From the NCBI GenBank assembly GCA_965178125.1, contig OZ237735.1:1674001-1738000 (forward strand): a stretch of 64,000 nucleotides of DNA, read 5' to 3'. The translations under genes were made by a program, and so were the position numbers. The stretch is from Bilabrum cf. latius (Eukaryota). Below the pieces are notes generated by a model. That model had not been told where the DNA came from, searched no databases, and saw only the letters and a program-made list of their open reading frames with translations. Positions 26,409 through 55,788 of this stretch are shown in pieces (position 1 is the stretch's first letter; every line of letters begins with the position of its first letter).

Positions 26409-28370
26409 TCAGCTCATTCTTGCTGCCCCTGCTCCGGCACCGGCACCGCTTGCCTTGGCGCCGGCCGCGAGCAGCTGTCCGTCAGGCCGAGTCCTAACCT
26501 TGAGACTAGGGATGCCGCTCGAGTCGGCCATCCTGCCCTTGGCGCCCTTCTTGGGCGTGCCTGGGCCTACGGGAGCCGTGGCCTTGGTGAACAGCACGCT
26601 GTCGTCCTCTTCGATGTCCCACAGGGCCAGCTCGCCCTTGCTCCCGCCGCACGCGAGAATCATGGGCGCGTGTGGCAGGAAGGAGCAGGTGAACAGCTGG
26701 CCCGCCCCCATCTCCTTCTCTCCAATCTGCAGCGGCCGCCCCGGCGCACCGCTCGAGGCAGACCCCCCTGGTGCCTCTATCCTCGTCGTGTCCCAAACCT
26801 TGACCTTCTTGTCAGCGCCCGCAGTGGCGAGCACCCCGGGGAGCAGGGGAGCAAAGGACACGGCGTGGCAGGCGTCCTTGTGGGCAACCGCGGCCCATGC
26901 CGGGCGGTCGGGCTTGCGCATGTCGAAGCCGGCCACGGTGCCGCCCTCGGCGCACGCGACAAGGCTCCAGGTGTTGTGCGGGTCCCACTGCACGTCTTCG
27001 GCGTCGGCGGGCAGCCGGCTTCGCATGACCTTTGGCTTGGGCTTGCGCGCGTCAATCACACAAACGGTGCGATCGTACGATGCAGTTGCAACGATGGATG
27101 CAGCCGAGCCAGTGCCGGGGTGGAACCTGCATGCGACCACCTTGCCCGTGTGATGCCTCCACGTGTTGATGCAGGCCCCCCTTGTCACGTCCCACAGCTT
27201 GACTGTCTTGTCCGCCGAGGACGAGCAAAGCAGCCTCCTGTGTTCCCTGGACCACGACAGGCCCATCACGGCGTCCTGGTGTGACCCAGGAGCCAGCTTA
27301 CCGGCGGGACCGGGCACGGTGCCCGACGCGCACACCTGTCCCGCCAAGCCTCCCAGGATGGCGGAGGGCTCCAGCGGGTCCAGCACGTCCAAGTTCCAGA
27401 TCTCGATCCCGGGATGGAAGGTGCCAACAGCGACGTATGAGCCCACCAAGGAGGGCAGATCGTCGTCCTGCACCGCGGATGCGAGCTGCAGCGCTTTCCT
27501 AGCCAGCTCACCCTGCTCGCCCGACATGCCGTCCATGCCGCCGGCACCTGCACCGGCACCGCTGCCTGCCGCAGACGCGCGCCCGGAGGATCCGAAAGAC
27601 GAGGAAGAAGCCGCGCCGGAGCCAGGCGCCGAGGCGGTGCTCGGGCCAACGCCCGCACGTCGCATCATCGCGTCCGTGGCGGCGATGGCACCGGTTGCAA
27701 CCGCAGCAGCGGCGGCGCCCTTGCCGGGGGGCAGGTCCATCCACTCGACGGCCAGGGGAAAGGCGGGCAGGTTGAAGTCGTGGTGCACGTACAGGGAGCC
27801 CTCGGTCCGGTCGTACGTGTACACTTCCATGGCGCTCTGCTCATCTTCTGTTCTCGCCACGCACATGAACATGTCTCCTGCTTTGGCTTCGACGTCTCCA
27901 TCGTCATCGGCGGCATCGGCATCCTCGGGGTCCTCGCCATCCTCGATCACCTCCGCGATACCGGCATCCGACATCATGGCACTCCCATCTCCAGCTTCAT
28001 CGTCATCGTCGTCGTCATCAGCGGCGCTAGTGCCCTTTCCAGCGCGGCCTTTGCCCTCGGCTTTCTCCACATCCCTGGCCCGTTTCGCTGCAATCTCCAG
28101 CGGGCTCATTGCCTTCTCACCGGCCGCCCTACGGCGAAGCTGCTCTACTTCTTCAGAGCTAAGCTCATGGCTGACTGGAAACCGCTTCGGTGCACCCGGA
28201 GGAATCTGTAAGTGTGAAGATTTGGCAAATAAAGACGTATGCGCTGCTGAGGGCAAGCACCGCAGTTGCGGCAGGATCGGGTAGAAAATCGATTCATGTA
28301 ACTACGAAACAGTACAACTGCACAAACTTACCCAAGCCATTGCAGAAATCATGGCACCGTTGTCATCCAT
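26409..28370 (-). CDS. PWP1: Periodic tryptophan protein 1 (WD40) homolog; exons 28370-28332 and 28205-26409
   Basis: PWP1 motifs LYVHHDFNLPAFPLAVEW and VAVGTFHPGIEIWNLDVLD, plus WD40 repeats. Splicing a GTAAGT..TACAG intron restores the family-type N-terminus MISAMAWIPPG. Ends in TGA; no TAG. Confidence 0.9.
28206..28331 (-). other. GT-AG intron (126 nt) in PWP1
   Basis: TGG|GTAAGT donor and TTACAG|ATT acceptor, phase 0; restores the conserved N-terminus. Confidence 0.85.
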
Positions 28371-28508
28371 GGTAGCAAACTCGTGCAAATGTATGGAGAC
28401 CAAGTGCAACTTCCCTGGGCTGTTTCACGAAGCTCAACGAACGTTCGAATAGGCATGAGGCACGCAGCATGACTCTTGCTGCTAAAGTACATCACACGAT
28501 TACTAAAA

Positions 28509-31148
28509 TTACTTTGCAGCAACCTCACCGCTGGACGTGGCCATCGCGCTTCGAAGGACCTCGTCCAGCTTGCCTCTCTGCTTCAGATACTCGAAGACAG
28601 CTGCCTTGGCCTTGGCGTCTGCCTGCTCCTCCGCAGCCGCACGAGTCCTGGCTGCCTCCACCTCGGCCTGGCTGGCCGCAGTGGCCTGCGCATCCCTCGC
28701 GGCGGCGGAGCGCCGCGCGAGCACCTGCGCGCGGAGGAGCAGCTTCCGTTCCTCCTCGGCCTCCTGGCACAAGCACTTGCTCAGGGCAGGCGCCCCCTCC
28801 TGGCTCTGCACGGCGGGCCCACGCAGAGCGGCGCACACCTGAAGCATGCGCCTCAGGCGCGGCCCAGCCACTGCCGAGTCCAGCACCGCAGCACCAACAC
28901 CCTGCTCCGCCCCATCCTCGGCTGTTCCCTCGTCCACGGGCTCTTGCTCCAGCGACTTCGCGACCACCGCCGAGACCGGGAGCTCCCTGCGCTCCCAGAG
29001 GCACCGCAGCGCCTCCCGCTCGGCCCACTCCTCCCTCCACGACCTCGCGGCTGACATCCATGCTGTCAAACGGCCGAGCCGCATGGACAGGGCCGCGCGC
29101 TGCTCGGGCCCGCACCTCTGCTGTTCCCTGGAAGCTGGAGGACCCCCGCCCGCGCCCTGCTGCGCCTTCTTCGTCTGCTGCTCGCCGCTGGGCAGGCCCC
29201 CCGCACGGCGATCGCACTCGTCACGCGCCTCCCGCACCTCTCTGGCCACCTGCGCCGCAGCCGCCGCCTGCCCCGCCACGGCCGCCCTCCGCCTCGCCGC
29301 CTCGTCCTTGAGCCTGTCTGCTTCCCACTGCATGCGGCCGGCGCAGCCCTCCCTGTAGTCCCTCGGTTTCGCCAGGCACCGCTTGCGCTCCTCCAGGACC
29401 CTCCTCGACTCTTCGGAAAGGGACTCGGCCTCCCGCCACAGCTGGTCCGGCCTGTGGGCCACGAGGGCAGCGGCGGCGGGGACGCCAATGGCCTGCGAGG
29501 AGCGGGCCAGCGCGGTGCCCTCCAGCTGGCCGGCCACCTCGCGGGCCGCGCGCGCCGCCGCAGAGTCGCCGTCCACGGCCAGCGTGCCGCCGCCCGGGGT
29601 GGAGCTGGATCGCGCGGGGCCGGTTCCGCTGCGCAGAGGCGTCGTCGCCGCGACCACCTCGCTGATGGGGTCGGCGGAGGAGGCCGCCGAGGACCCCGAC
29701 CCGCCCCTCCCGCTGTTCCCCGGGACCAACAGCCCCAGGCCGGTGTGCCACCGCTCCTTGCGAAGCGCCAGCTCGCGCTCTAGCACCTCCCGGGCAGCCC
29801 GCAGCCTGGCCGCCTGCGCATCCACGGCCTCCGCCTCCGCCTCGAGGGCGTCGGCTGGCCGGTGCATGGCTGCGTCCAGGCCAAGGCCGTTGCCCGCACG
29901 AGTGGCCAGGGCGCCCCTCATGGCTCGCAGGATCGAATCCAGGGCGGCCTGCGCCGCGTCCTAGCCGTTGAGTCCGTCCGCGGGCTCGGTCCCGTTGTTC
30001 CCCGCCGCGGTGTTTTGCCACCTGGAGGCGGCCCCAGCCTACGCGCTCAGCGCGGCGGCGGCAGCTGCTCGAGCCTCGGCCTCTGCCGTGGAAGCCGCCT
30101 CTGCCGACTCCGTGAGCGTGCGCATGGCAGTAGCGAGATCGGGATAGTCGTCACGCAGGCGCTCCCAGTCTTCCTGGCAGAGCCGCACCGCGCGCTCCCG
30201 GAGGCGTTCGAGCGCGAGTCGGCCTGGCAGAGTGTGCTGGGGCCACTGGCCAGCCGCGGACTTCGCGGCCTGGGCCTCCTCCTCCTGATCCTCTAATTCC
30301 TGATCCGCGGGCACAATCTCGCATTGCTGCAGCGCGCCGAGCATGCCCAGCGGCAAAGAGATGCCCTTGGAGCGAGCAGATGCCTGGGCGTGCTCGATCC
30401 GTTCTAGCAGACGAGCAGCGGCTCCTGCCATCTGATAGGTGGCTTGCACGTCCGATCGCGTGGAGTTCACCTTGCCTAAGGCGGAAACCAGCCGGGAACG
30501 CTCCCCCTCCGCGGCTTCGCCCGCTTGCTCCTCCATGCGGCGCCTCCAAGCGAGCGCGGCGCGCTGCAAGGGCGCCAGCTCTGACAGCAGCGCGCTCACA
30601 GCCCCCTCTGCTTGCTGCGATGCTGCCACATTTCGCATAAGATACGCTACGGCCGCGCTCTCAGCAGCCCGTGCTAGCGTCCTCCTGGTAGCTTCGACCG
30701 ATGCTTGCCCAGAGGCCGTTTGCACAGCCTTGCTCCGCAGACTCTACGCGCGGTCCCACCGCGATTCTAAGAAATCAATTGTACGCTGCACTTGGCCCAA
30801 ACCGTCTCGATCCCTCGGAAGCTGCTCTACTAGCAGAGAGGCAACCGTCTCCGATGCTCCCGATGGAACGTCGGTCTTGGCGCGATGCTGCTGCTGCCAA
30901 TCAGACACGTCCCTGGTGATCGACGCAACGGATACCTAAATTGCATCTACAGTTGATTGGGATGCATCCAAAGCAGACCTTGCCCTGTCCCGAGGCGACG
31001 GTGGCTGCACAGGCTCGTACGTCGCAGCTGCCGGCTCTATGCGCACGGCCGGCTGGAGCGACCCTGCTCTGCCTCCCCTCATGCCAACAGCAGCAGCTAT
31101 CGGAACAAGAAGTATGCTTATACACGCGAGACCACACACTTGCCGCAT
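28509..31148 (-). CDS. Hypothetical secreted Ala/Glu/Arg-rich coiled-coil protein, ~879 aa (4 in-frame TAG)
   Basis: Track ORFs 30936-31178, 30039-30725 and 28509-29921 are in one frame and separated only by TAG. Signal-peptide-like start MRQVCGLACISILLVPIAAAVG. Ends in TAA at 28509-28511. Confidence 0.7.
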
Positions 31149-31306
31149 GGCCGCCGGACCTAGCGGCGTATAGCACAAAGTTTGCTTGCGAGTTCGTGCG
31201 GCCCTCTCGTGTAGGTTCCGTTACTTCACGGCGCCGCGCATTGCTTTGTACGGTGTGACGAGCGAAGAGCACGAAATCTTTTTTTGAGTATTTGTAGGGC
31301 GATTGT
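31149..31306. promoter_or_regulatory. Probable bidirectional promoter region (158 bp)
   Basis: Short spacer between divergent predicted start codons; positional inference only. Confidence 0.4.
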
Positions 31307-34120
31307 ATGAGCGAAAACAATAGTTCCTCGAGGAGATCGTAGTATTTGTAGCCTGCAACAGCTAGTATCGCCTAGAGTGCTCCAGAACCCGAAGTTAGTG
31401 ATGAAAATGGCCTGGACTTTGTTGCGGAGAGAGGGTAGCGCATGGAATTGGCTAGAAGAAGGCTGGATGAGCTGCGGGAGCGAAAGCGATAGACAAGGGC
31501 TGGCGAAAATACTGACGATATTGACGCCCTGATGAAGGAGTTCGGAGAAATGGGCCAAAAAGGGGCACAAGGTGACCAGCCGAAGGGCTCAGAGGAGCTG
31601 CAGCGAGAGGTTCAAGATTTTGTGGAAGCGTCTGTCATGAGTGACCCTCATACTGCAGATCTGGTGAAGCGAGGCTTGTCCTCCAAGGATGCAGAGCAGC
31701 AGCTGGTGCCTTTCTGGCGGCAGGGTAGCAGGTCCTCGCAGCCGCTACTCGGAGACGATGGTGTGGACAAGCTGCCGACTGTTGGGCAACGCATCAGCGA
31801 AGCCATTGGAACTGCACCATCCCCTGCTTCTGTAGCCGAGCGATAGCACCCTACCCCTCGGTCTTCGTCCGATTCGCACGCCGGCCTTCCGACTCCAGCA
31901 CCTGCAGCCGACGACGAGACGGCAGATCTTGCCGGGGACGGAATCTTGAGAACGACCGAGGATGCGGCGGGTGCATGCTCCAGTGCCCTAGGATCGAGCT
32001 TCGGGCGGCGGCTGCTGGTGCGCTCAGCCGTTCGCTCTATGCAGCACGCTGCACCCACCTCGCGCAAGGTGGCTCCGGGTATGGCACAGTTCCCGTACCG
32101 CTCCAGCTCGCGTGCATCCAAGCCGTGGGGTGTGACAAGTGAAGGGATGCCGGTGCACGTGCCCATGGCCGCGCTGCTCGCTCACGAGCGGGAGGGAACC
32201 CTGGCTGTCGCCGCGGCTGGTTCACACGCAGCCGGGGGGTCGCAGCCGAGTGCTGCCCAGCGTCTCGAGCAGCAGTCAGAGTGCCTCGCGCTGGCAGAAT
32301 CCTGGGAGGCGCACGCCTCCGCCGCAGATCGGATCACGGGCAGGCTGCGGCGGGTCACCATGGGCCTGACTGGGGGCCAGCGTGAGGGCGTTCTCACACC
32401 CTGGGACTCCATGCTGCGGCTGCAGCAGAAAGCAGGTAGTCAGGACCGTGCGACTTCTTAGCAGCGGCTTCCATTGTCTTCCCTTCAAAAAGGACTGCTG
32501 GACCGATTGGGCGGCCTGGATACTCTGCAAGGTGCGGCCGCTGGGCAGGCATCCTTGGGGTTGCCCCCTTCTGTGCGGAGAGAGGTGGATGCGATGCGGC
32601 GCGAGAGTGAAGCCGCTCTCGTTGGTGTGCTGGGCCCGCCCTGCATCTTTCACAAGAATGCAGCAGAAGATGAAAGGAAGGGGGCTGCGAGCAGCCCAAG
32701 CCGAAGCAGTGAAGGTGCGACCGACGGCAGTCGCATAGCACAAGAACGGGAGCTGCGCCGGGCTGTTCAAGGCGTGACGAGTGCGCCCGGCTGGGCTTTG
32801 TAGCGCGCGCGCCGCTTCGGAGTGCCGCTGTCGATCGACGGCCCGGGCACCGCCGCCCTCGGCCTGTCGGGGACTGACCTCGGGCTGCTGTCGGATCGCT
32901 CTGACGTTCGGGCCATGGGCTCCTCCCTGCTGGCGAGGTTCGCGGCAGGGATGGTGTTGGCGGCCCCTTTCGGACCCATGGCCATGCTGGCTGGGGCGAC
33001 CGACGTGGCGATGCAGAATGCGGCAGCCTCTGCCGCGGCAGCCTCCGGCACGGCGGGAGGGGGCGCAGTGGTTGCCAGCAGCAGCGGTGGCAGTGCCGCT
33101 GCCGCCGCCGCTGCGAGTGCGGGCGGCTTGACCATGCGGGCTGCCATGGTGGGCAGCATGGCGGCAGTGGTCCCAGCAGCCATGCTCTTCTTTGGGAGCT
33201 ACTGGACGTTCGAGTACGCCGCGCGGTGGGCCCTCGGCACTGCGAGGAGGCTCGTGGACGGGGAGGCGTTCGAGGGAACAGAGCGAGCGCGGGCAGCGGC
33301 CCGCGCCCTTGTTCTCGCGAACCTAGGCATGCTTGGTGCAGCGAATGATGACTCTGGGGGCTCCTCGTACAGGCTTAGGGGCTTCTTGCCGGGAGCAGGG
33401 GACGAGCGCAGGCTGCCGCCGTCGCGGCCTCTGGCCGGCGGTGCCCTGCCACAGTCGGTGGAGGGCGTGCTGGAAGAGCCTCTCTGGGACTCGGAATCGT
33501 ATGCAAGTGCCGTGACGAGTGCTGGGCTGGGTCGCGTGCTCGCCCTGCGGAGCTTTGCGGGCATGGACGGCGTGGAGCTGGCACCGGAACAGGTGAGGGG
33601 CGAGACCAGGGGCGAGACCGGGTCTCGATCGGGGGAGCAGACGGTGGGCAGGGGGCAGCACCCCGAGGAAGATTCTCCCGACTGGCTGCTTGGGAAGCAG
33701 CGACCTGGGGAGTCGGAGGGTTACTACGCTGCGAGGGTGCTGGAGGGGGCGGCCAGGGCGCGGGCGGTGCTGGCCGCACCCCAGCACCTGCACCTGCAGC
33801 AGCTCGAGTCGGAGCGGCTGACGGCTGACTGGCTGCGGCTGAGCAGCGCCAGCGGCGTGCCGCCCTCGTGCGAGAACTCGAGGCAGATCGCCGCGTGGAT
33901 GAGCGCCGGGCTCGCCGCCGGCTTCGTGCTGAGGCAGCACAGGGGTGCCATCTTGGGAGGCGCGCCGGGGGTCGCGCCTAAGGTGGCCTTCGCAGCTGCC
34001 ATGGTCTTGGGCCCTGCGCTCGCCCCTTCGGTTCTGGGCGACTTCGAGAGCAGGGTGCTAGTGGTCGCCAGGCGAACGCTCGCGGCTCCACGCTGGGCTG
34101 CCATGGAAGATGCCAGTTGA
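31307..34120 (+). CDS. Hypothetical protein with hydrophobic C-terminal segments, ~937 aa (8 in-frame TAG)
   Basis: ATG 31307 is in frame with ORFs 31532, 31946, 32474 and 32822, with only TAG interruptions and TGA at 34118-34120. Gly/Ala-rich hydrophobic helices weakly resemble Tim17-like membrane proteins (unverified). Confidence 0.65.
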
Positions 34121-34275
34121 TGAGCCGGCGTTGTTCCGGTTCCGGCCGAAGAGACAGGCTCGGTTCATTTTGCCGTGTGGAGGACCACAAACACAGTAAT
34201 CTTCGCGCCATACTGCGACAGTCAAAGCGACTCATCATCCCGTTGCTGCTAGGTAGACTTCAGAGGGTCTCTACG

Positions 34276-36885
34276 ATGTCAAGCAGCCCGATCGATCTTA
34301 CAAAGGTTGCAGGTGATGCGGTGCAGTTTAGGGTTGTGCCCGAAGCTTTCTCATCCAAGCTGGTCGCACACGGACTAGTTTGCTTCGGAAAAGATGTCAG
34401 CAAGGTCAAAGGGGCAGCGGGAAAATGCATTTTGCGTCCTCGCGAGGTAGAAGGCTTCCGCTCGATGAGAAATGTTGTGTCTTGGGGTATCGTCAGCAAT
34501 CTGCCTACAGATACTGTATCGCATGAGGTTTCAAGCATCGGGACAGCACCAAGTGAACATGGGTAGAGGGTTGTAGTAATCCTTCATCCACCGGAAGCTT
34601 TGCCGTCTGGGTAGGCCATCGAGAGCGATTTTTTGTGTGCTCCGCGGCTTGCTCAAAGCCCGCTCCTGGAAGGCCTAAAAGCCGGGAGCGAGGCAGGATC
34701 TGGGGAAGAGTATGTGCTATTGGAGCCTCGCGCAGTAGAGAGGGAGTCGGCAAAACCGCGGCCGAAGGGTTGGGCAACCGAAGTAATTCGCAAGGTGTCG
34801 GGGCCTCTGGACGTTGCTGCCCTGGAAGCCCTCGGGTACAGCAGCAAAGCCACCGATCTGTGCAAACAAGATAAAGCAAGCTCCCTCGGTCTGCTGGCGC
34901 CCGCCATCCCCATCCGTCTGGAGCTGCAGGGCTCCTACTTAGGTATGAGCGCCCAGGCGGCCATTGCAGCGTTCCTGCCAGTGGCAGATCCCCAAGAGGG
35001 ACTCACGAAGGAAGGGGGAGCAGAACCTAATAGCGAGGATAGTACCGAAAAGTTAGAAGGAACAGCAGCAGGCACGGCGAAAGCATCGTTGTACGCCCGC
35101 TCTGGGGCAGCGAAGGAGAACAAGGGGGCGGCCGCTGGCGGTGCAGGCAAGCAGGCTCTCGAGGCAGAGATGCACCGGCTCCCGCCCAGCACAGCGAGCG
35201 GGCCCGCGCTATCTTCTGCTTCTTCTTCGCCGGCTTCGGCTGCAGCTACCGCCGTTGCGACGGGTGCAGCTGCACCCGGTGGTGTGGGACAGGCACCAAG
35301 CAACAGTGAAGGGGGCGGTGCCATAAGCAGCTTCGAGCAAGCCGGCGACGTGGCACACGTAAACTTGGTGCAAACTCATTTTCCTTGGCGGTTTGCTATC
35401 GGTAGGGTGCTCCTTGATCTGCAGCCGACCCTCCGCACGGTCCTGGTCAAGTGCGGGACCATTGAGTCTGTGTACCGCACCTTCCCCATGCAGGTTGTGG
35501 CTGGCAATGGGGCGAGAGAAGAGGCCGTCGCACGCACTGCTGGTGCGCCCCTTCCGCCCATCCCAGTGACCCTCCGTGAGACGGAATGCAGCCTGAGTTT
35601 CGACTTTCGCAGGGTGTACTGGAACAGCAGGCTGCAGCACGAGCACAGGCACATGGTCGAGGCAATTGTGGATGCAGGCGTGCCAGGCGCGAGCTTGCCT
35701 GCCGGGCAAGCTGATTCGAGCTCGGGTGCAGCAGGCTCTGGGGAGGCCAAGGACGCCCCTCCGACCGCTGGGAAGAAGAGGAAGAGGGACAAGTAGGAGC
35801 GAGCCGTAGCCGGTCGGGGCATCATCATCGCAGATGCATGCGCGGGTGTGGGCCCTTTTGCCGTCCCATTGGCGAAGCGAGGCGCCACGGTGCTAGCAAA
35901 CGACCTGAATCCAGAGTCGCACAAGTGGCTTGTCCGCAACGCCAAGAGCAACAAGTGCGGCGCGACGCTGGTGCCGTCCAGGGATGACGGTGCAAATTTC
36001 TTGCTGAGGCACGTCGCTGCAGCTCAGGGCGAAGCGGTGCCACCGCTGAAGCTGCCGGAGGGCTAGAGTGAAGGCAGTGGCAGCGATGTCGCCGGTTCTG
36101 GTTCGTCCGGGTCAAGCATTGCGAGAGATCGCATCCCGAGCTCGGGCTTTGACCATATTCTCGTGAACCTGCCGGCCTCCTCAGTTTCCTTTGTGCCAGC
36201 GCTGTAGGGCGCCTTTGATCGCGCCGTGTGGCCCCGCGCAGCCCTGCCTGTTCTTCACTGCTACACATTTGCCGCGGCTCCCTACTCGCGAGACGGAACG
36301 CTGCAGCAGCTGGCGCTGCTCGAGGGTGGCGCTGCAGACACGCAGGCGCCAGACAGGGAAGCTGATGGTGTCCTGGCGTCGAATCGGGGTGGAGGTGGGA
36401 GCGATGGGGCCGTCGCTTCTGGTGTGGCACCGAGCAGCGCTGCAAGCTCTGCAACAGGTGGGGCCTCGTCCTCGTCCTCGTCGTCGCAGCTGGCAGGCAA
36501 AGAGACCCGAGGTCCTCACCATACCGTCGCAGAGAGGAGGAGAATGGCTTTGGAAGACGCGACGCAGCGGATCTTGCATGCACTGGGATTGCGCCGGCTA
36601 CACGAGCAGCGCGGCCGGGTGAGATGGTTGGATAGCATCCGTCAGGTCGTGCAGGCTGAGCAGAGTCCCGCGGATGAAGGCGGGCCCATCCCCGTATGTG
36701 GGAGGGTGATCCGGGACGTCTCGCCCAACAAGTACATGGTCTGTATTTCGGTGCGGGTTCCATGGGACTGCGGGAGCAATGGGAAGCCGGCGGCTGCGGC
36801 GCCGGGTGAGGAGGCTAGTGCCGGTGGTGTGGCGGCAGGTGGCACTGGCACCGAGAGTGCTTCCAAGCGTGCAAGGGTGGAATGA
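34276..36885 (+). CDS. TRM5: tRNA (guanine-37-N1)-methyltransferase Trm5, ~869 aa with low-complexity insertions (5 in-frame TAG)
   Basis: Met-10+/Trm5 motifs occur in order in one frame across TAGs: SSFEQAGDVAHVNL, FDFRRVYWNSRLQHEH, ADACAGVGPFAVPLAK, VLANDLNPES, HILVNLPAS, LHCYTF, IRDVSPNKYMVCIS. Ends in TGA. Confidence 0.9.
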
Positions 36886-37043
36886 TGACACCAGCATTGA
36901 GACGATAATACCAATTTGCAGCCGTAGATTTCAAGCCGTTTACAGACACTCCATCAGTACCTGTACTACAACTCATGCATTGTGAACAGCTTGCCCCTCT
37001 TTGCCTCGGAAGAGCCGTAGCCACGAGCAGCAACAGGACCCAC

Positions 37044-38297
37044 TCAATCATCCTTTTTGCTTTCTCCCTCGTGGGCATTGCCAGTTACCATGGGAATGGC
37101 TCGTTCCTTCCCGCCCTTGCCTTGCCATTTGTTGCCCTTGACGCTGCACGGTTCTTGCACGGTGCTGCTCTCATGCCCCAGCGAAGTTGTAGCACCGATG
37201 GCCTCGCCTCCTCTGGGCTCGTTGTTGTCCTCATCCTCGTACCCGCCTTCAAAGGTCGTGCCCATGAAAGCGTCCATGATTCCGAAGAACGGGCTGTAGT
37301 TCATGGTGTGCATCAGGTGGTGAGCCACGTGCCGCCTCTGGTTGCTCGGCAGGCCCAGCACCTCATTGGGCCACACAGGGGGCTGGTACGGGAAGTGGGA
37401 TTCGGTGAGGAGCCACAGATAGATGGGCACGTACGCATTGCGCGTGAGGGGGTGCGCATGGATGGCTTTAAGGATCCCGTTTGCCACGAGGATGGAGCCG
37501 ATTCGCTCCGCGAGGGTCAGCTCGTTGGTCGTGCCCTAGTGCACCCTGCCCCCCTGGGGGTGGCTGTGGTGCTGGAAATGCAGGGCCTTGTAGCCCCAGC
37601 CCTAGTGGTGAAGCACAAACCTATGCACGAAATAGAACAGAACGTCGTACAGCACCACTGCGAGGACAGCCATCACGACCGGCTCCCACCACTGCGGCGC
37701 TGCTTCCGGCAGCACCCGCTCGCTTTGCAGCGAAAAGTATGGTTCTTCTGACCATTTCTCGTACGATACCCCTGCATAATGCTTTCTTGTAAACGTGTCC
37801 AGAAACGCAAGCGGTCCGACGTACGTAATAAACTGATAGAAGAGGCCATACATGCTGCCACCTCGCCAGGAGGGCCCGGACGGCTGCGACACCTCTGACG
37901 GAATCCGGTACTGCTGTATCCACTCCGTTCTGTCAAGTGCAATGAATAACCAATATATTGGTGGGTAGAACACGCCTGCCTCCGCAGTCTCAAGGTACAC
38001 GGATCTGCGATGCAGCTGGTTTCGAAACGAATCCATTGTGGAGCATGCTAGCGCATACAGATGTTAAGTAAGCACGTCCAGATTCAAGGAGACTTACTTG
38101 TACCACCACTGAATACGCAACCAGCTCCAGAAGCTTGCCATCCCGGCGTTCAACTCCGTTCCGTACAAGAAGCCAATGACAACGCCAGCAGCAAGTATTG
38201 CTCGAAGGAGCCAAATTACGTGTCGATGGGACTGTTCTTGCCGAACCGGGCGACGAAACCAGCCTTCAACTCCCAAAGAGCGCGATTTAAGCGTCAT
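37044..38297 (-). CDS. Fatty acid hydroxylase / sterol desaturase superfamily protein; exons 38297-38098 and 38004-37044 (2 in-frame TAG)
   Basis: His boxes HRFVLHH, HFQHH and HVAHH, plus NYSPFFGIMDAFMGT, lie in one frame separated by two TAGs. A GTAAGT..CGCAG intron gives WWYKSVYLET. Ends in TGA. The start codon is the best guess. Confidence 0.85.
38005..38097 (-). other. GT-AG intron (93 nt)
   Basis: AA|GTAAGT donor and CGCAG|A acceptor; phase-compatible. Confidence 0.7.
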
Positions 38298-38401
38298 TAC
38301 ACCGAATAGTACGCTATGCAGATGGGACAGTTGCACTTCATATCGAGCCCGTCATCATTTGACCCAACTTTTCAATTCCGGACTCAAGTCGGCAGCACGC
38401 G

Positions 38402-41400
38402 TTAGCCCAGGTGCCCCCTTCTGCGCATTTCTGCGCCCATAAAGCCGCCATTCTACCTTGCAGCATATCGTCCTTGCATCCCCTACCGCACCATACCCCT
38501 TGCACCCGATTGGGAGCCGCCTTCCGCTCTCCTCGAGCGGCCACCTGCCGACGAGTCGCTCAACGATGACCCCTGCCGCCCCCGCCGCCCCCCCGTACCT
38601 CTACCCCTTGCAGACCTCCCGCCAACCCTAGCGCACGTTGCAAAACCGCAGCACTGCATCAGAGCTGGGACCCCGAACGCGCACGAGACGGGCACGAGCA
38701 GCAGCAGCACCACTGCCGTTGCGCCCACAACCACGGGCTCGCTGTAGGCTAGCCGCATCCACACCGCGGCATCGGCCCAAATAGTAACAAACTGAGACCT
38801 GTGTGAATCAATGGATGCAGCAGCATTCTTAGAACCTGCTGTTCCATCCACACCGCTGCACGCACTGCAATGCACTACAATTACACCCAGCGCCTGCTAG
38901 TCCCCGCCGGCAGCCCCCGACCCCCATTCCCACCACGCCGCGATCTCCCACCCAGCCAGCTGCATAGTGGCATCGCGCATACTCTCTGATTCAGCTGCAG
39001 TGTGCATCTTTCCGATGTCCAGCCTCGCCGCATTGGACGGGCTGCTGTCCTTGTCCCCCTTCAGCTGCTGCACGTCCATGTCAGCAGGCTACTGGGCGGC
39101 TGGCTCGAGAGTGTCTGAGCCCCCAGCCGCTGACTGCAGCTGGAGCTGCTCAAGCTCGCACGCAGTGGCCTCTGTTATAGCTCGAAAGCATCTAACAGAC
39201 GCGTCGTTGGAGGCGGCGCTACGGGCAGTAGAGCAGGAGGCTGCGTGCGCAGCAGCATAGCTTGCGCATGCGTCGAAGCGAGAGGCAGCCAACCGATCAA
39301 TGAGCGCGGATGAAGCCGCCGTCTGCTTGCTGTTCGAAAGCGCGGCATCTGTCAGTCCCAATGGCACACCCTCTCCTCCGGCCACCCCGGCCAGCACGCA
39401 GTCCCACCACGATCTTGAGTCGTGAGGCGCGCTCGGGCTGCCACACGCCTCGACTGGGTCAGTATGCCGAGCTTGGTAAGCTGCTCCCTAGGCGTAGGAC
39501 GCTGATTTCCACCTAGGAGCAAGCTATGAGTGACCAGGTTGCTTGAACCAGCCCCACGCCCACCAGCTGCCCGAACTCGAGGCGTCATGGAGGGCAAAGG
39601 CGCCGTGGTGAAGACCATGCACAGGTCCGGTGGATCCAGCCGAGGCAGCCGCGTACCGTACGAGCGCTGGAGTTGGATTCTTATCGTACGTCATCCCTTG
39701 GCCCGGCAGCTGCGATACCCTGGGCAGCAGAGGGGCGATCAAGAACCCACCCCTGGATTGAAGCCCGTGCTCTGCGACGTGGTCGTAGCACGCCGGCTCG
39801 CAGTGGAGGCACCTGTCGATGGGGGCTGTGGAACCCTGCGAGCTCCGACGGGTCCTACTATCGCGCTTGATGCGGTCGCTCCAGTGAGACCCCGGTCCAC
39901 CCCGTTTGCGAGATGTCCGCGAGTTCGTCTGCCCTGGACTGCCCTCAGGCACTCCGTGGTCGGCGAAGGCCGCCCGTTCCATGGCGCCAAGCAGAGCGTA
40001 ATACCCCCCTGCTTCGTACCCAACCGCGATGCTGCGTGGCTTGAAGGTAGCGTAGGATGAGACCAAGCCCTCTCTGTCTCTCCCTCGCCCCTGCTGCAAC
40101 TTACTCTAGACACCAGCCCGCAGGGAGCTCGCCAGCAGCCGTGCACCCACCGCGGCGAGCACAGACCTCTCGAGGTCAGCCCTCAGCCACTGCTACCATG
40201 CCTGCCTGCTTACCTGCCATGCCCACGTCTTGACCACCAGCCGGGGCTATGCCTGCAGCGCTACTAGGTTCAAGACAGAGCTCACCCCATGGATCGATGA
40301 TGGCGAAGACAGTGATGCACTAGAAGCAACGACCCCGAGCTCTGGTTCCATGCACGCAGCCGGCTCGATCCCGCTGTGGCCACCCCCGAGCCGCTTGCTT
40401 CCAGATGGTTCCGTTTCGCGGTCGATCTGTGCCTGCGACAGCGGCTCTGGCACGTCGGCGAGGCCCGCCAAGACGCTGGGCCTGGCCAGGTGCTTCCCGC
40501 TTGCGATGCCGAGGAGGGACAGGACGGCCTCTCGGTGGGTCGGGGCCTCCTGTCTGTCCACCGCAGCGCGCGCTGCATGGGCGATCTGTGTCAGCGAGGT
40601 CTCTGATAATCGCAGCCATGGGGTGCCGGCGACGTTCAGGGCCACAGCACCCGGTCGATTGCTCGATCCAGCGTGCAGCGATCCAGCAGGGTTCTTGCCG
40701 GCCGGATGCTCGAGCCGGGATGCGAGCCGCCGCCGTGCTATTTCAGCGGTATCCTGGCGATTTAGACCTGGGTGTTGGTCTAGCGCATCCCCTAGTCGCG
40801 TTCCGAGCGCCGTGACAGCCGTGCGAGCCGCTGCCATGGCGCTACCCAGGTCTGGGGACAGAGCCGCGTCATCCTCGACGATCAGCGCGAAGTCTGGTGG
40901 ACTAGTGAGCCCATCACCCCGGATTGAAAGAAGCGAGCTGCATTGAATCGTGATTTTCCCGTGTTCGTGCTCGGCTGAGTACTCGGCACCCAGTGTAGCA
41001 CCCCCCTCGCCAAACACGGCATCGACGCCGGCCAGAAGGTTGCGAGTGCTCTCCACCTTTCCAGTCGCCCGCCCAAGGTCTAGATGAAGCGGATTCGTGC
41101 AAACATAGGACAACTTTCCAAGAGCTTCCCAATTTCCCTGCGCATTTGAGCACTGGCAGTCTGCACAACCTGCCCTTGGCGCTTGAGATGGGCTTCCAAG
41201 GAATCGAACAGCATCTGACGGCTTGAAGGCCGCCGTGCCACCCCGGGGGACGCTATGACTAACGACAACATGGTCGTTCCCAAAACCTATGTCTGCCAAC
41301 CGGCTGAGGATCCGAGCCAGTTGCTCTGGCCGATTGTGCGTCATCACTACGACGCCGACGGTAGGGTCTGTGGTATCCTTACTTGCATCAATTGGAGCTG

Positions 41401-41461
41401 CAAATCGAGTAGCAAGTAAAAACAATATGAGTGGACATATATGGTGTACCAGGCTGGTCAT
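38402..41461 (-). CDS. GT-A fold glycosyltransferase, GT13/GnT-I-like, ~1,019 aa (9 in-frame TAG)
   Basis: N-terminal hydrophobic leader, VVVMTHNRPEQLARIL, ALIVEDDAALSPD, TWAWQVSRQAW and IAPLLPRVSQL, plus a C-terminal TM-like segment. ORFs 40247, 39524, 39089, 38897 and 38483 are in frame and joined by TAG. Ends in TAA at 38402-38404. Confidence 0.65.
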
Positions 41462-41565
41462 AAAAAGCTGATAATGGGCAACTTCGAAGCAGTGATTCCT
41501 TCATCATCACATCATTGCCACGGGTAGCAACGGCTCGAAGGGTGAAATGTCTGCACCATTTTAAG
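41462..41565. promoter_or_regulatory. Probable bidirectional promoter region (104 bp)
   Basis: AT-richer spacer between divergent predicted start codons; positional inference only. Confidence 0.4.
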
Positions 41566-44089: not shown

Positions 44090-44114
44090 GGGGCTGACAT
44101 GGATGGTGGATCAC

Positions 44115-44133
44115 GGGGGGGGGGGGGGGGGGG
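44115..44133 (+). repeat. Poly-G tract (19 G) followed by further G runs
   Basis: Read directly; lies between two convergent stop codons. Confidence 0.9.
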
Positions 44134-44393
44134 TTGGGGTGTTGGTGGGGTGGCAGCAAGCAGACTCGAATGACGGGCCTTTGAACCGAGCAGAAACACC
44201 GTATCAATCCCCACGCAAGCAATTTAACACGGCGGCCTCTTTCTGAACCTTAATCCAGTTGTGAGACAGCCCAGCCACACGTACCCTTGCCCACAGCCAA
44301 TACCACGCGTGTGCCGATTGCATAGCCAAGGGAACCACATCAAATAACGCGACTCAATTCACCCGTGTTCCGGAATGTAGATCCGGCTTGGAT

Positions 44394-46532
44394 TCAAACC
44401 TGGCCCATAGCACCCTCGACACCTCGTGCCATCCCGGCGCCCAGTTCCATCTGGTTGTTGCTCTCAATCTTGGCCACCCCCCGGCTCGTCCTCGCCGCGC
44501 CCTGGCTGTTGCCCTCCTCGGCGTCCTGCTTGCGGTCCGCCTCCTCTTGCTGCTCGAGCGTGTCAGAAAGCTGCTTGCCCGAGGTTTCGTGGGGCAGGAA
44601 AAGCCCGGCGATGGCACCCACCATGAGCATACCAGCCGCGAGCACCAGCAGCAGAGGGATCGACACGTGGATGAGGGCACCGAACACGAACTGGCCCGCC
44701 ATGGAGCCCAGCCTGCCGCTCCCAGCCAGGATCCCCATCGCACTTGTGCGCAAGGACGTAGGGAACGATTCCGTGGACACGCAGTCGAGGGAGTTCCAAC
44801 CGCCAACGCTTACCATGTTGAGCAAGCAGGCTGCAATGACTGTGAGAGCCGCTGTCCTGCTGAACGCAAACAGCACCGCGAGTCCAGAGGCGATCATCAT
44901 GCTGAAGGACAACAGCCGCTTCCTGCCCAGCCTGTCCATGAGCAGACTGCTGATGATGTTTCCCGGCAGGTTGGCAGCCGCCACGAGGAAAGCGTCCTGG
45001 TAGATGTCGAGGTCGAAGTCCTGCGCCTCGAAGAGGCTGGGGATCCACAGGATGAGGCCGTACCACCCGAACGACAGAGTGAACCAGATGATGGTCAGCA
45101 TCACCGAGGTCTAGCGGATGGACGGGTGGAAGAAATCCTGGAACGACTTGCCGAACGAGCCCATGAAGCCGCAGTACCCGCCGCAGCAGGTAGGGCCAGT
45201 GCTCACGACCGGCACGTCGGAACCTGCAGAGAACATGGCTGGGTCGTCTCCCGCGGGACCGCCCGCCGGCTTGTCTGCCAGCCCATTCCCCGGACTGCTT
45301 GCCCTTCGCACCGGCGGCTCCTCCCCATCGGAGAGAGTCAGCGGCGACCCCTCGGCGCCTCCCGTGCCGTACCGCGTGCGCACGCCGCCGGCCAGATCCC
45401 CTTGGCTGTCCCCTGCCGAGGCCAGCCCCCTCGAGCTGTTACCCATAATGGCCGCCGCGCCTTCTCCACCGCCTACGCCGTGTCTCGCCGCGCCGCTGTG
45501 CGCGTTCTCTTTCGCGACGAGTAGGTAGCCCGGGTCGTCGATCCGGCTGGGCTGCCCGTTCCACTTGGCCATGTATCTGAGGACGTCCCTGCACTTGTTG
45601 AGGAGGCCCTTGGTGTAAAAGTACCGAGGAGACTCCGGGAGCAGAAAGATGCCCAGGATGAGGGCGAGGGTCGCTGGCCCCGCGCACACGAGAGCGAAGA
45701 TCCTCCAGCTGAGCCCGAGGATCCCAATGAGGATCCAGGCGATGCCCGCAGTGAAGATAGAGCCGATCATCCAGAACCACGCAACGATGGTAAGGTAGAA
45801 CCCACGGCCCTCCATGGGGAGAAACTCGACGTAGATCGTAAACACGGAAGGGATCGATCCCCCGACGCCAAGGCCGGAGATGATCCTCAGCGCGGCGAGC
45901 ACCGGCCAGTTCGGGGAGAGCGCAGAGGCCGCGCCAGCGACCGCATTGATGCCCAGGGACGCCAGCAGCGTGAGCTTGCGCCCAAATACATCCGAAGCAC
46001 CCCCGGCAATGAGGCCTCCGACCAGCATGCCGGCAAACACAGCGGCCGACAGGACGCCTGCAGTGAAGTATAATCGAATACAAGCATAGTATAGACTCGT
46101 TTCTCTCTGCGAGCCGAGACCAGGGCTTGTGCCAATAGAACAATAATATTCTTACTTTTTGCATGGTCTGTGATGGTCTCGTCCTCTTTATCTAGCTCTG
46201 GGATTATGTAGCTAATGCAGAGTAATTCGACTGCATCTGCAGCATTGCCTAAGCCACATATCATGACGGCCATAATATGGAACCATCCTGGTCCCATGTG
46301 CTCAATTTCATCATCACAAGTTATACTCTACACTTCACCATCGTGCCTGCGGTTAGCGCGGGGGGTAGTGGTGTACGAATGAGGAATGCGCGAAAACGAT
46401 GTGTGACGCAGGCGCCCAATTTCCAAACGTCGAGGCAAAACTGAGCCTATCGCACCTTGATGGAGTGCTAAATGAAATACCATCCCGTGCTTCAGCTGTA
46501 GCATCCGAATCGGACCGTTTACGTCCATCCAT
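44394..46532 (-). CDS. MFS transporter, SV2/SVOP-like; exons 46532-46456, 46346-46156 and 46057-44394 (2 in-frame TAG)
   Basis: Motifs GLGNAADAVE, SDVFGRK, GLGVGGSIP, LPESPRY, MDRLGRK and ESFPTSLRTSAMG. The two MFS halves are joined across a TAG at 45111-45113. Introns 46058-46155 (GTAAG..CTGCAG) and 46347-46455 (GTGCGA..CTAACCGCAG) are phase-compatible. Ends in TGA; exon 1 is less certain. Confidence 0.88.
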
Positions 46533-51804: not shown

Positions 51805-53764
51805 TCAATCCGCCCAAGGCGCCAGGAAGCCACCCGTCGCCTCGATCGCGCCACAGTACCCGGTCACGTTCTCGTAGGCCGGGGGCGGCGGGTGGTACTG
51901 CCCGTCTAGGTCCTTGAGCATCTACAGCATCTGCGCGAGCACTTCTGGTTCCGAATCCGCGAGGTTCTCGTGCTCGGTTTCGTCCTTGCTAAGGTCGAAG
52001 AGGCAGGGCTCCTGGGGCGAGCAGGCAGACCCGCTGAAGCAGTCCGGGTTGCCCGCGGGGTCACCGGGCGACTCCACGAGGCCGCCCCAGGGGGCGTCCG
52101 TCCGGTTCCAGCCCGGGTCCGTGGCGTCTGGCACCTGCTGCAGCTCTGCCTTGCTACAGCTGGCGTTTGGCGTGTACCAGCTCTGCTCTCCGGAATACCA
52201 CGACGGGAAGCCCTGGGGGGCCGTGATGAGCTTCCAGTTCTTGTGGATTATGACTCCGGATCCAAGTGGGAAGTGGGTTGTGCTGTTGCCCCAGTGGTCG
52301 ACGATGAAGGTGTCCCGCGGGGAGCTGGGCTGCTGCCCCGACCAGTAGGGCCACTGGTTGTATCCGTCCATGGGGGCGGGGCCCTGCCCATCGTTCGGGT
52401 CCAGCCCAGCCATGGCTGTGAACGTGGCGTAGATGTCAGAGAATTGGAACATGCCGCTCTTGCGGGTGCCCCGCTCGGAGGCAGGCACGAGCCCTCCGCC
52501 TACGACAGCAGGCACCCGGATGCCACCCTCCCAAGCACTGCCCTTGCCTCCTCTGCGAGGGTGTTGCGGTGATTGGGAAGTGGGGATGGGAGTGGAGCAC
52601 GATGGGAAATGGACGCTTGGTATCAGACGCTGAAGGAGGCACTGAATCGCTTGCGTTGGGAAAACCTGGAAGCGAGGGGGGAGGCGTGGCTGGGTGGCTG
52701 GGTGGCTGGGTGGCTGGATTGGCTCGGCCGGGCCGATCCGGGCTCACCTGAGGCGCGCGTTGCTGCCGCCCACCTGAACGGGGGAGCCGTTATCCTGCGA
52801 GACAAAGAATGCATGGGACGCCATAAGGTGGCTTGCATGGGGGGGGGGGGCGCACCGGCGAATGCAACGCAGGGGATGAGTGCTCTGGGACAGCAAAGGG
52901 CGGAGGTCTCACTCCTGCAAGCAGCAGCAGGGTGTTGTCCCACATGCCAGTCTCCTTGAGCGCGCTCGTCACATTGGCGAGGGCTTGGTCAGCCATGCTG
53001 ACCATGCCTGTGAACTTGCGCTGGGGGAGGAACGGGATGCTGTCGTTGAAGGGGTCCACGGCGGAGGCAGGCGCCTCGATGGGTGCGTGCGTCACGTGCA
53101 GAGCAAAGTACATGGCCATGGGCTCATCAGGCTGGGTGGCAGCGTGCTCCCGGATCTGATCCACGGCGTACCGCGTGAAGCGGTACGTGTTGTACTCGCC
53201 CTCCGGCTCCTCCGAGGGCCTGGTGCTATTGTAGAGGTCCCTGCACTTGCACTTGTTCGTAGGGTTGAAGCAGTCCTGATTCACGTGGTCCTCGCCGCCG
53301 GACAGGAAGCCGTAGGAGCTGGTGAAGCCGCGCTGCACCGGCGTGTACTCGGGCGAATACAGCCCTTGGTGGTGCTTGCCGACCTGCGGCACTCGAGGGT
53401 ACTTTGCTTCCTCGACCAGTCTCTGGGGCCACATCTTATAGCGCAAGTCGACGCCTTCCTGTCGCGTCCAAGGGATGAGGTTGTCGATGGCGGCGGTATG
53501 CCTCCACCCCGCGCGGCCTGTCAACAGAGACGCTCGCGAGGGAGAGCAAAACCTGTACGCGTACGCAGAGTCCAAAATGATACCGTCCTCCGCCAATGAA
53601 TCCATTGCGGGAGTGTTCATTGGGTCAGGTGAGCTGTACATAAACTTTGGGTAACCCACGCCCCAATCGTCCACGAGGACCATGATCAGGTTCGGCCGCT
53701 TTGAAGCTGCGAGTACCGCAGAGGCAATACAACCACTTATCACTGCAGCAATAGAGGACTTCAT
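51805..53764 (-). CDS. Arylsulfatase (ARSB-like, formylglycine-dependent); exons 53764-52913, 52794-52748 and 52552-51805 (1 in-frame TAG)
   Basis: Signal peptide, PNLIMVLVDD, CSPSRASLLTGR and GKHH. Splicing two GT-AG introns restores DNG...SNARLRGGKGSAWEGGIRVPA. LFDLSKDETEHENLA is present, and reading through TAG 51922 gives a GGFLAPW end before TGA. Confidence 0.92.
52553..52747 (-). other. GT-AG intron (195 nt) containing a (CCAGCCAC)n repeat
   Basis: AG|GTGAGC donor and TCGCAG|A acceptor. About four copies of TGGCTGGG on the + strand at 52687-52717. Confidence 0.85.
52795..52912 (-). other. GT-AG intron (118 nt) containing a C12 tract
   Basis: GGA|GTGAGA donor and TCGCAG|GAT acceptor; restores LLLLAG-DNG. 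Confidence 0.85.
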
Positions 53765-55594: not shown

Positions 55595-55788
55595 CAAATA
55601 TCAATTTGTGGGTAACAAGACAGCAGGATCGTGGGCTTCTCAAAACAGCAAACAAACGGGAATAAAATGCCTCAGTCGTCAAAACGATGCTCCGATCGGT
55701 AATCGTTGCTAAAATTATTGTTCTGACAATTCCGCAGCTGGTAAATCAGTGGGCTACAGCAATTGCCCTCCCTAAGTTATTTTTGAAT
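55595..55788. promoter_or_regulatory. Probable bidirectional promoter region (194 bp)
   Basis: AT-rich spacer between DHCR7 and the divergent Ser/Arg-rich gene; positional inference only. Confidence 0.4.

Follow-up and report, generated by a model that had tools for sequence, protein, structure and literature searches.

The window, the whole 64-kb stretch of DNA analyzed here, is contiguous with 60% GC and most probably represents nuclear DNA of a GC-rich, intron-poor microbial eukaryote in which cytoplasmic UAG is read as glutamine, while UAA and UGA act as terminators. We place the probability of this reading at roughly 0.85. The resulting codon table is that of NCBI code 15. Codes in which UAG specifies Gln and TAA and TGA are stops are rare and have already been described. 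A sequence-only reading of the same DNA had proposed the core of this assignment, with UAG as a sense codon and UAA and UGA as stops, which is supported by the pairing of TAG with Gln codons in L001, a syntenic relative from a metagenome, the lack of in-frame TAA, and the anchoring of a TAA stop at 28509.

For the gene models, ORFs were read through TAG and combined with Pfam matches, three introns with GT-AG ends, and L001 synteny (Table 1). The 16 modelled genes comprise 19,372 sense codons, including 123 TAG, 213 CAA, and 537 CAG, with no in-frame TAA or TGA. TAG was present in 14 of 16 genes and accounted for 14.1% of Gln codons. Fourteen genes end in TGA and two, both on the minus strand, in TAA (28509-28511 and 38402-38404). 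These models reproduced the tallies of the sequence-only reading (no TAA within genes; 14 TGA and two TAA ends). Several 5' ends are provisional and ORFs were allowed to start at TTG or GTG, such that a few N-terminal TAGs may sit in 5' UTRs.

The window is cellular DNA, carrying fibrocystin-like, PWP1, Trm5, and DHCR7 genes and spliceosomal introns. The fibrocystin-like protein carries TIG, PA14, G8, and CEMIP beta-helix domains along its length and had 4,965 homologues at E≤0.001. The PWP1 intron (28331-28206; 126 nt, in-frame, GTAAGT..CAG) contains the only TAG of that gene. The sulfatase model was based on Sulfatase and Sulfatase_C domains in two separate ORFs and a match to solved sulfatases; its introns (52912-52795 and 52747-52553) are both GT-AG and leave the joined frame open. 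An apparent third TAA end at 52790-52792 is out of frame in exon 2 of this gene and is not a stop. The ORF at 36975-37751, on the strand opposite the fatty-acid hydroxylase, was judged spurious.

Table 1. Features of the window, with the number of TAG codons and the terminal codon of each gene model.
Feature	Description	Positions	Strand	TAG	End and remarks
g01	Fibrocystin/PKHD1-like, single exon, 7,808 codons	219..23645	+	54	TGA
g02	No assigned identity	25044..26294	+	0	TGA
g03	PWP1-like WD40 protein	26409..28370	-		TGA; C-terminus same as in 97% relative P0273
Spacer g04/PWP1	Non-coding	28371..28508	-		Second in-frame TAA 28500-28502; TAG 28503-28505
g04	Coiled-coil protein, no Pfam family	28509..31178	-	4 in frame	TAA; relatives' fragments P0393, P0394
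g05	No assigned identity	31292..34120	+	9	TGA TGA
g06	TRM5/TYW2-type methyltransferase	34117..36885	+	5	TGA TGA; start provisional
g07	Fatty-acid-hydroxylase family	37044..38036	-		TGA; C-terminus same as in L001 orthologue
g08	Membrane protein, no Pfam family	38402..41461	-	9 in frame	TAA; orthologue L001 3945-7250 (12 TAG)
g09	No assigned identity	41624..44089	+	7	TGA; orthologue L001 1343-3544
g10	MFS transporter	44394..46040	-	1 (aa 310)	TGA; TAG in L001 too
g11	Low-complexity, no assigned identity	46827..50936	-	10	TGA
g12	Sulfatase, three exons (53764-52913, 52794-52748, 52552-51805)	51805..53764	-	1	TGA
g13	7-dehydrocholesterol-reductase-type ERG4/ERG24	54146..55597	-	1	TGA
g14	Ser-rich, no assigned identity	55687..59358	+	6	TGA
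g15	No assigned identity	59555..61894	-	6	TGA
g16	JmjC/MBT protein, 5' end cut by window end	62005..63999	-	8	TGA

Nearly all of the genes use TAG as an ordinary sense codon, which, judged against relatives, behaves as a Gln codon. At well-aligned sites in four orthologous gene pairs, window TAG codons were partnered in L001 by CAG (7), CAA (3), or other codons (8; two Leu, two Glu, and one each of Arg, Ala, Asp, and Tyr), and two sites were TAG in both. Gln codons thus occupied 10 of 18 changed sites (P = 3e-10 for at least 10 of 18 at a rate of 0.04). The log-likelihood for the meaning of TAG across these pairs was -32.6 for Gln and -59.2 for the next best residue, Glu. In the same test, each of the control codons CAG, CAA, GAG, TCG, TTG, and AAG recovered its own residue. 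As the clearly diverged L001 shares both the code and two individual TAG sites, the code change evidently predates the split between the two.

Protein fragments from close relatives contained Gln at three of five window TAG sites and Ser at the other two. The ends of ten relatives' fragments were compared with the window: three stop at its CAG codons (P0179, P0393, and P0002), two at a shared TAG (aa 5355), two at the window's own TGA stops, and one at ATC, while two have unaligned tails. Against distant fibrocystin homologues, only seven of the 54 TAG sites could be aligned. The residues most common there were S/T, S/T, E, E/T/K/S, S/N/T, G, and Q; the log-odds were ambiguous and did not point to Gln. 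One of the seven, aa 5355, is occupied by Gly in 93 of 123 homologues.

Context-dependent codes have precedents for UAR and UGA in Condylostoma and for UAA in Blastocrithidia. By analogy, TAG could be mostly Gln yet also serve as terminator in some genes close to the 3' end of the mRNA, alongside TAA and TGA as plain stops. Every TAG was read through by construction of our models, and one in g09 sits three codons before its TGA. A second in-frame TGA or TAA was present within three codons at 6 of 20 gene ends, compared with 1 of 40 out-of-frame controls, and this enrichment of back-up stops could reflect imperfect termination. However, none of the 20 gene ends needed a TAG stop, and the late g09 TAG is opposite CAG in L001. 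The base following TAG showed no marked bias relative to CAG, and all alignable C-termini (DHCR7, PWP1, fatty-acid hydroxylase, MFS, and g04) finish at TGA or TAA. We consider such an ambiguous code unlikely. TGA itself lies at conserved C-termini in PWP1 (compared with P0273), the fatty-acid hydroxylase (compared with L001), and DHCR7. For the latter, 20 of 21 aligned homologues reach the C-terminus and all 20 finish at the position of the TGA; P0002 stops earlier.

The TAA that ends g04 (28509..28511, minus strand) is retained in a relative with about 8% divergence, with no change listed in run X10. The rows on either side of it, at 28503 and 28518, list all three of the runs X10, X12, and X15. 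Among the rows listed, X10-only differences appear complete as far as 28596, while any confined to X12 or X15 might be missing; as the three mostly share their differences, they count as roughly one relative. On the 5' side of the TAA, eight of nine listed substitutions fall at third-codon positions (P=0.001). On the 3' side, the differences listed include at least 23 substitutions and at least six frame-breaking indels, the sizes listed for X10 being 1, 3, 1, 2, 2, and 1 nt. P0394, from a relative 65-72% identical, stops at most three residues from the g04 C-terminus. By these comparisons, TAA 28509 is anchored as a real terminator at a conserved C-terminus.

The TAA that ends g08 (38402..38404, minus strand) is, by the same kind of comparison, not anchored by homology. 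Its L001 orthologue has a longer, non-alignable tail ending in TGA. Within the window, the next in-frame TGA is six codons on, so g08 taken alone is compatible both with TAA as a stop and with TAA as a rare sense codon. An earlier caveat, that neither TAA end was anchored, is therefore resolved for 28509 and stands for 38402. The 64 kb contain only two TAA ends, of which one is anchored.

If TGA were instead the sole working stop and TAA (nearly) unassigned, both TAA ends would be due to chance, with translation ending at the next TGA. This would fit the occurrence of TAA at just 2 of 20 gene ends and the TGA shortly past 38402. It is at odds with 28509, where 25 codons separate the TAA from the following in-frame TGA and at least six frame-breaking indels lie between them in the relative. 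TAA 28509 itself persists, whereas the in-frame TAA and TAG that come next, both in the spacer, are mutated in relatives (T>A at 28501 and C>G at 28503), and P0394 stops close to this position. In addition, the share of TAA among gene ends (2 of 16) matches the compositional prediction: TAA makes up 0.30 of TAA and TGA trinucleotides outside genes (P=0.095). We regard TGA as the only stop as very unlikely. The TGA excess over TAA (14:2) is largely compositional; the strong TGA preference asserted earlier mostly reflects the base composition of a 60% GC genome.

Absence of in-frame TAA is partly built in, as TAA and TGA set the ORF boundaries. Three tests are free of this bias. First, g01 remains a single ORF throughout its length with neither TAA nor TGA. 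Second, across 15 genes there is no in-frame TAA, compared with 56 and 64 in the two alternative frames; TAG counts are about equal across the three frames (123, 148, and 151). Third, the A/G-ending ratios of CAA/CAG, GAA/GAG, AAA/AAG, or TTA/TTG predict 22-57 in-frame TAA codons if TAA were sense (P(0) ≤2e-10). The earlier claim that genes lack internal TAA was borne out, with 0 in 19,372 codons. The L001 orthologues of four genes are likewise each one single, TAA-free ORF.

These counts bear on a code 6 type assignment, in which UAA and UAG are both Gln and TAA is just very rare in a GC-rich genome. Among eukaryotic stop-codon reassignments this one is the most frequent (PMC5304391, PMC11687900), and A-ending codons are a minority in the window. 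However, A-ending synonyms are far from absent (CAA 213 vs CAG 537), and scaling by TTA/TTG, the pair with the strongest skew, still gives an expectation of 22 in-frame TAA codons against none observed. Given also the abundance of TAA in the other two frames and the end of codon-like conservation at TAA 28509, code 6 is close to refuted. The proposal that TAG is not reassigned, and that in-frame TAGs mark pseudogenes, assembly errors, or unrecognized introns, is refuted for practical purposes: introns exist and that of PWP1 does contain a TAG, but only three were found, all GT-AG, while the 123 TAGs are spread over 14 of 16 genes, two sites are common to the window and L001, two lie within the fatty-acid-hydroxylase Pfam domain with CAG at both in L001, and the same locus is present in runs of nine studies.

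Reading UAG as Gln with UAA and UGA as stops would involve a tRNA-Gln with anticodon CUA, able to read UAG and unable to pair with UAA. Its source, most simply, would be a mutated copy of tRNA-Gln(CUG). The eRF1 would no longer recognize, or would recognize only weakly, a G in the third position after UA, but would continue to read UAA and UGA. A tRNA with anticodon CUA together with altered eRF1 is the standard inference in print (PMC5304391, PMC11687900). No tRNA gene and no eRF1 gene was found in the 64-kb window.

It can no longer be assumed that UAA and UAG change meaning only as a pair, as codes that separate the two have been in print since 2017, for example in Iotanema (PMC5304391) and several ciliates (PMC11687900). 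In Iotanema spirale (Metamonada, Fornicata), the nuclear code has the same codon table as the window, with UAG as Gln and UAA and UGA as stops, and the same predicted mechanism of tRNA-Gln(CUA) and altered eRF1; the eRF1 of Iotanema has a T32G change in the GTS motif (PMC5304391). In contrast to the window, where PWP1 points to stramenopiles and stops are 14 TGA and two TAA, Iotanema belongs to an unrelated lineage and its primary stop is UAA (PMC5304391). Evidence was also drawn from a transcriptome there (PMC5304391) and from genomic DNA and a syntenic relative here.

Among ciliates, Hartmannula sinica, Trochilia petrani, and Protocruzia tuzeti likewise use UAG but not UAA as Gln, widely across genes (PMC11687900). 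Internal UAG is reported in 78-84% of their genes, compared with 14 of 16 here, and makes up 18.5-31.8% of Gln codons, compared with 14.1% here (PMC11687900). Unlike these organisms, the source of the window is not a ciliate: the DNA is contiguous over 64 kb, has 60% GC, and shows nothing that suggests nanochromosomes, and the best matches to PWP1 are stramenopile sequences. Other decoupled codes assign UAG to Leu (rhizarian exLh and TARA phyllopharyngean MAGs) or Ser (Scotinosphaera), and the PL0344 ciliate reads UAA as Lys and UAG as Glu (PMC5304391, PMC11687900, PMC10553269). As described there, UAG again shifts independently of UAA and a CUA-anticodon tRNA is taken as needed; in the window, however, Leu, Ser, and Glu are rejected by the log-likelihoods above. 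Code 6 lineages, which include many ciliates, ulvophytes, hexamitid diplomonads, Streblomastix, and Amoeboaphelidium (PMC11687900), share UAG as Gln and differ in that TAA is not a sense codon in the window.

The lineage bearing this UAG-only Gln code may be new. A literature search found no report of a UAG/UAA-decoupled code in stramenopiles. The best matches of PWP1 are stramenopiles, and the protein was placed among them, adjoining Cafeteria.

At 60% GC, the 64-kb window was split into short ORFs by the standard set of stop codons, while reading through TAG restored long ORFs encoding eukaryotic proteins. Recounting codons in the 16 gene models (19,372 sense codons) returned the numbers of the sequence-only reading, which had found TAG to be common within genes and TAA to be absent. 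In frame, TAG occurred 123 times, CAA 213 times, and CAG 537 times, while TAA and TGA did not occur. TAG was present in 14 of the 16 genes, making up 14.1% of Gln codons, and sites fell within conserved domains (the G8 and beta-helix regions of the giant fibrocystin-like protein at residues 4948, 5220, and 5355, and the FA_hydroxylase domain). Gene ends likewise agreed with those given previously, with 14 in TGA and two in TAA (28509-28511 and 38402-38404). A third apparent TAA end (52790) was not a stop. The triplet belongs to an exon of the spliced sulfatase gene, where it is out of frame, and it looks like an end only when exon 1 is read into the intron.

Because TAA and TGA served as the bounds of ORFs, the lack of in-frame TAA is partly built into these models. 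However, three observations are independent of ORF delimitation. The first is the single ORF of 7,808 codons, which contains no TAA. For the second, the ratios of A- to G-ending codons in four other pairs were used to derive the number of in-frame TAA codons expected if TAA were sense (22-57), giving a probability of at most 2e-10 of observing none. For the third, 15 genes contained 56 and 64 TAA in their two other frames versus 0 in frame, and TAG was near-equal across all three (123, 148, and 151). The presence of in-frame TAG without in-frame TAA is confirmed. As the 5' ends of several models are provisional, a few TAGs near the N-terminus may fall outside the translated sequence.

Distant homologues were ambiguous as to the meaning of TAG. 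In an alignment with 150 fibrocystin-like representatives, 7 of the 54 TAG sites of the giant gene fell in alignable columns, with top residues of S/T, S/T, E, E/T/K/S, S/N/T, G, and Q. Each control codon pointed to the residue it encodes, but TAG produced no clear winner (S, E, T, K, R, and Q were close). At residue 5355 (TAG at 16281-16283), 93 of the 123 distant homologues have Gly in the column, at odds with a reading as Gln. This TAG is common to close relatives, as their database fragments P0271 and P0272 end there. The single TAG of the DHCR7 alignment lay in an unconserved N-terminal stretch and was uninformative.

Protein fragments from close relatives (92-94% identical) carried S, Q, Q, S, and Q at five window TAG sites. 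These fragments were called under the standard code, such that only changed TAG sites are visible. The ends of ten protein fragments from relatives were also located on the window. Three fell at CAG (P0179, P0393, and P0002), two at the shared TAG of residue 5355, two at TGA codons that are stops in the window itself, and one at ATC, while two had unaligned tails.

The decisive data came from a syntenic relative. A metagenome scan with g08, a membrane protein gene, recovered one locus only, contig L001 (9,192 bp), whose gene order and orientation match window positions 37044-46040 (MFS transporter, g09, g08, and FA hydroxylase). Its 28 TAG codons are read through, all four genes end in TGA, and the orthologues are 44-73% identical to those of the window. 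At well-aligned sites, the L001 partners of window TAG were CAG (7), CAA (3), Leu (2), Glu (2), Arg, Ala, Asp, and Tyr. Changed partner codons were therefore CAG or CAA at 10 of 18 sites (P = 3e-10 at a 4% background). Using substitution frequencies from the same window-L001 alignments, the log-likelihood for TAG was -32.6 for Gln versus -59.2 for the next candidate, Glu. Since two mutations separate CAA from TAG, the equivalence exists at the amino-acid level and does not reflect mutational neighbourhood. This comparison supersedes the ambiguous fibrocystin homologues and identifies Gln as the amino acid at TAG. Two sites are TAG in both window and L001 (residue 310 of the MFS transporter and residue 646 of g08), so the change in code is older than their split.

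We then considered whether TAA terminates translation. The sequence-only reading had cautioned that neither TAA end was anchored by homology. The caution no longer applies to g04, a coiled-coil protein gene on the reverse strand (28509), but still holds for g08 (38402). Contigs of a relative about 8% diverged (run shares of 0.05-0.08 of sampled words) were compared over 28300-38700. Among the differences listed, none altered 28509-28511, and sequencing runs X10, X12, and X15 are all represented on either side, at 28503 and 28518. From the pattern of the differences listed, those of X10 were judged complete up to 28596, while changes private to X12 or X15 may be missing. Upstream (28512-28700), the differences listed comprised nine substitutions and no indel, with eight of the nine in the third position of g04 codons (P = 0.001). 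Downstream (28371-28508), they comprised at least 23 substitutions and at least six indels (1, 3, 1, 2, 2, and 1 nt). The next in-frame TAG and TAA, two and three codons past the 28509 TAA, were both mutated in the relative. Together, the third-position pattern upstream and the substitutions and indels downstream indicate that constraint of the codon type stops precisely at this TAA. As the three runs mostly share their changes, they count as about one relative, not three.

A metagenome protein, P0394, was in agreement with this end. Encoded on a 1,272-bp contig, it shares 65-72% identity with g04 over the C-terminal half and ends within three residues of the window C-terminus. For g08, the tail of the L001 orthologue is longer than that of the window, could not be aligned, and ends in TGA, and an in-frame TGA lies six codons after the g08 TAA. 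TAA ends a gene at a homology-anchored C-terminus in one of the two cases, that of 28509.

No RNA run was listed among the runs containing this locus, and run X6 is RNA only by guess. An X6 contig identical to the window (28492-31170) spans no gene other than g04 and extends 17 nt beyond its TAA. X6 had no cover listed at 28384-28491, differed in depth about tenfold between neighbouring genes, and dropped to zero in a spacer bin (38016-38362). This pattern would fit very short 3' UTRs, although contigs cannot show RNA ends.

TGA was found at the homology-anchored C-termini of DHCR7, PWP1, and the FA hydroxylase, which indicates that UGA has not been reassigned. In ambiguous codes of the Condylostoma, Parduczia, and Blastocrithidia type, the reassigned codon also terminates at gene ends. 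A TAG stop was required at none of the 20 gene ends of the window and L001, in models which read TAG through and cannot reveal one. A strong preference for TGA had also been claimed. The count of 14 versus two stands, but the preference is mostly compositional. TAA makes up 0.30 of TAA and TGA trinucleotides outside genes, a background at which two TAA in 16 ends gives P = 0.095, and two in 20 ends including L001 gives P = 0.033.

Back-up stops were enriched. A second in-frame TGA or TAA occurred within three codons at 6 of the 20 gene ends, whereas 1 of 40 controls taken out of frame had one (against a background of 6.6%, P = 0.0014), and three of the six were TGA TGA. These sites are at 23645, 26409, 28509, 34120, and 36885 of the window and at 8791 of L001. 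Selection for tandem stops is reported in ciliates whose stops are reassigned (PMC6879139).

Taken together, the pairing of TAG with Gln in L001, the absence of in-frame TAA, and the anchored TAA at 28509 bear out the core of the sequence-only reading. Judged by these comparisons, the interpretation that UAG is sense while UAA and UGA serve as stops is supported. Among anticodons, CUA alone can read UAG without also reading UAA, an argument made in PMC5304391 and repeated in PMC11687900. We infer that this code would involve a tRNA-Gln(CUA), with no tRNA carrying a UUA anticodon, along with changes in the N-domain of eRF1 (GTS, NIKS, YxCxxxF, and residues near them) that would weaken its recognition of UAG. 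The simplest origin of a CUA reader would be a one-base change in a copy of tRNA-Gln(CUG), and eRF1 would have to cease competing at UAG. ARAGORN predicted no tRNA gene in the 64-kb window, and Rfam returned no tRNA, nor a match of any other kind, in the window or L001. An eRF1 gene is likewise not encoded in either.

The lineage was approached using PWP1. Among the named, placeable matches listed, all were stramenopiles except for one fungus. In a quick tree of 36 picked rows, one of them non-stramenopile, the window was sister to Cafeteria plus one other row (SH-aLRT 94), and this group fell inside an 18-row clade with support of 99. The stramenopile placement is provisional, as it is based on one gene and both partners are skewed in composition.

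The best-known decoupled codes belong to Iotanema and to ciliates with AT-rich genomes, in which UAA is the dominant stop. Decoupling of UAG from UAA was first described in 2017, in a rhizarian (Leu) and Iotanema spirale (Gln) (PMC5304391). Later cases include Scotinosphaera (Ser), Protocruzia, Hartmannula, and Trochilia (Gln), and TARA ciliate MAGs (Leu) (PMC11687900). I. spirale and the three Gln-encoding ciliates have the same codon table as the window but differ in lineage and genomic setting. The code of the window is of a known kind, and the lineage is probably new. We found no report of nuclear UAG reassignment in stramenopiles in an incomplete coverage of literature on stramenopiles, bicosoecids, Bigyra, and recent UAG codes; the source data are from 2025, and a description may exist. 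We assign a probability of roughly 40% to the reading that this is the first stramenopile clade, of heterotrophic flagellates near bicosoecids, in which UAG encodes Gln and UAA and UGA are stops. The change would be old enough for lineages with orthologue identities of only 44-73% to share it, in a GC-rich genome where, unlike in known cases, UGA and not UAA is the main stop.

Cases in which one rare code arose independently make it possible to ask how a stop codon gets captured. This case would add a GC-rich genome with UAA as the minor and UGA as the major stop, and would test capture of UAG via prior rarity of the UAG stop versus AT pressure. On the practical side, standard-code gene callers cut the proteins of this organism at every TAG, and the database proteins of relatives encountered in this analysis are such fragments.

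Genes and introns of the window
Feature	Positions	Strand	Details
Fibrocystin/PKHD1-like giant gene	219-23645	+	Single ORF, 7,808 codons, 54 TAG; TIG, PA14, G8, CEMIP beta-helix domains
PWP1-type WD40 protein			
TRM5/TYW2 methyltransferase			
MFS transporter			
ERG4/ERG24 sterol reductase			
JmjC/MBT protein			
Sulfatase			
Fatty-acid hydroxylase			
Sulfatase intron	52912-52795	-	GT-AG
Sulfatase intron	52747-52553	-	GT-AG
PWP1 intron	28331-28206	-	126 nt, in frame, GTAAGT..CAG

The uninterrupted ORF of the giant protein encodes TIG repeats, PA14, two G8 domains, the CEMIP beta-helix, and a C-terminal membrane anchor. It is unusually long for its family, as the homologues listed are mostly 2,000-5,000 residues. 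Scans of genome contigs and viral contigs with a 1,121-residue part of this protein found no relative. Introns of the window were few and canonical. Those of the sulfatase gene came to light because one ORF matches Sulfatase and a different one Sulfatase_C, and joining the two leaves the frame open. The PWP1 intron contains neither TAA nor TGA and, if unspliced, would add 42 residues including one TAG. It was revealed only by its terminal motifs and the typical PWP1 N-terminus that results. An ORF at 36975-37751 (+) was rejected as a gene, being antisense to the FA hydroxylase gene, which is itself conserved in L001. With 258 codons, an ATG start, and no TAG, it shows that GC-rich DNA here yields long spurious ORFs.
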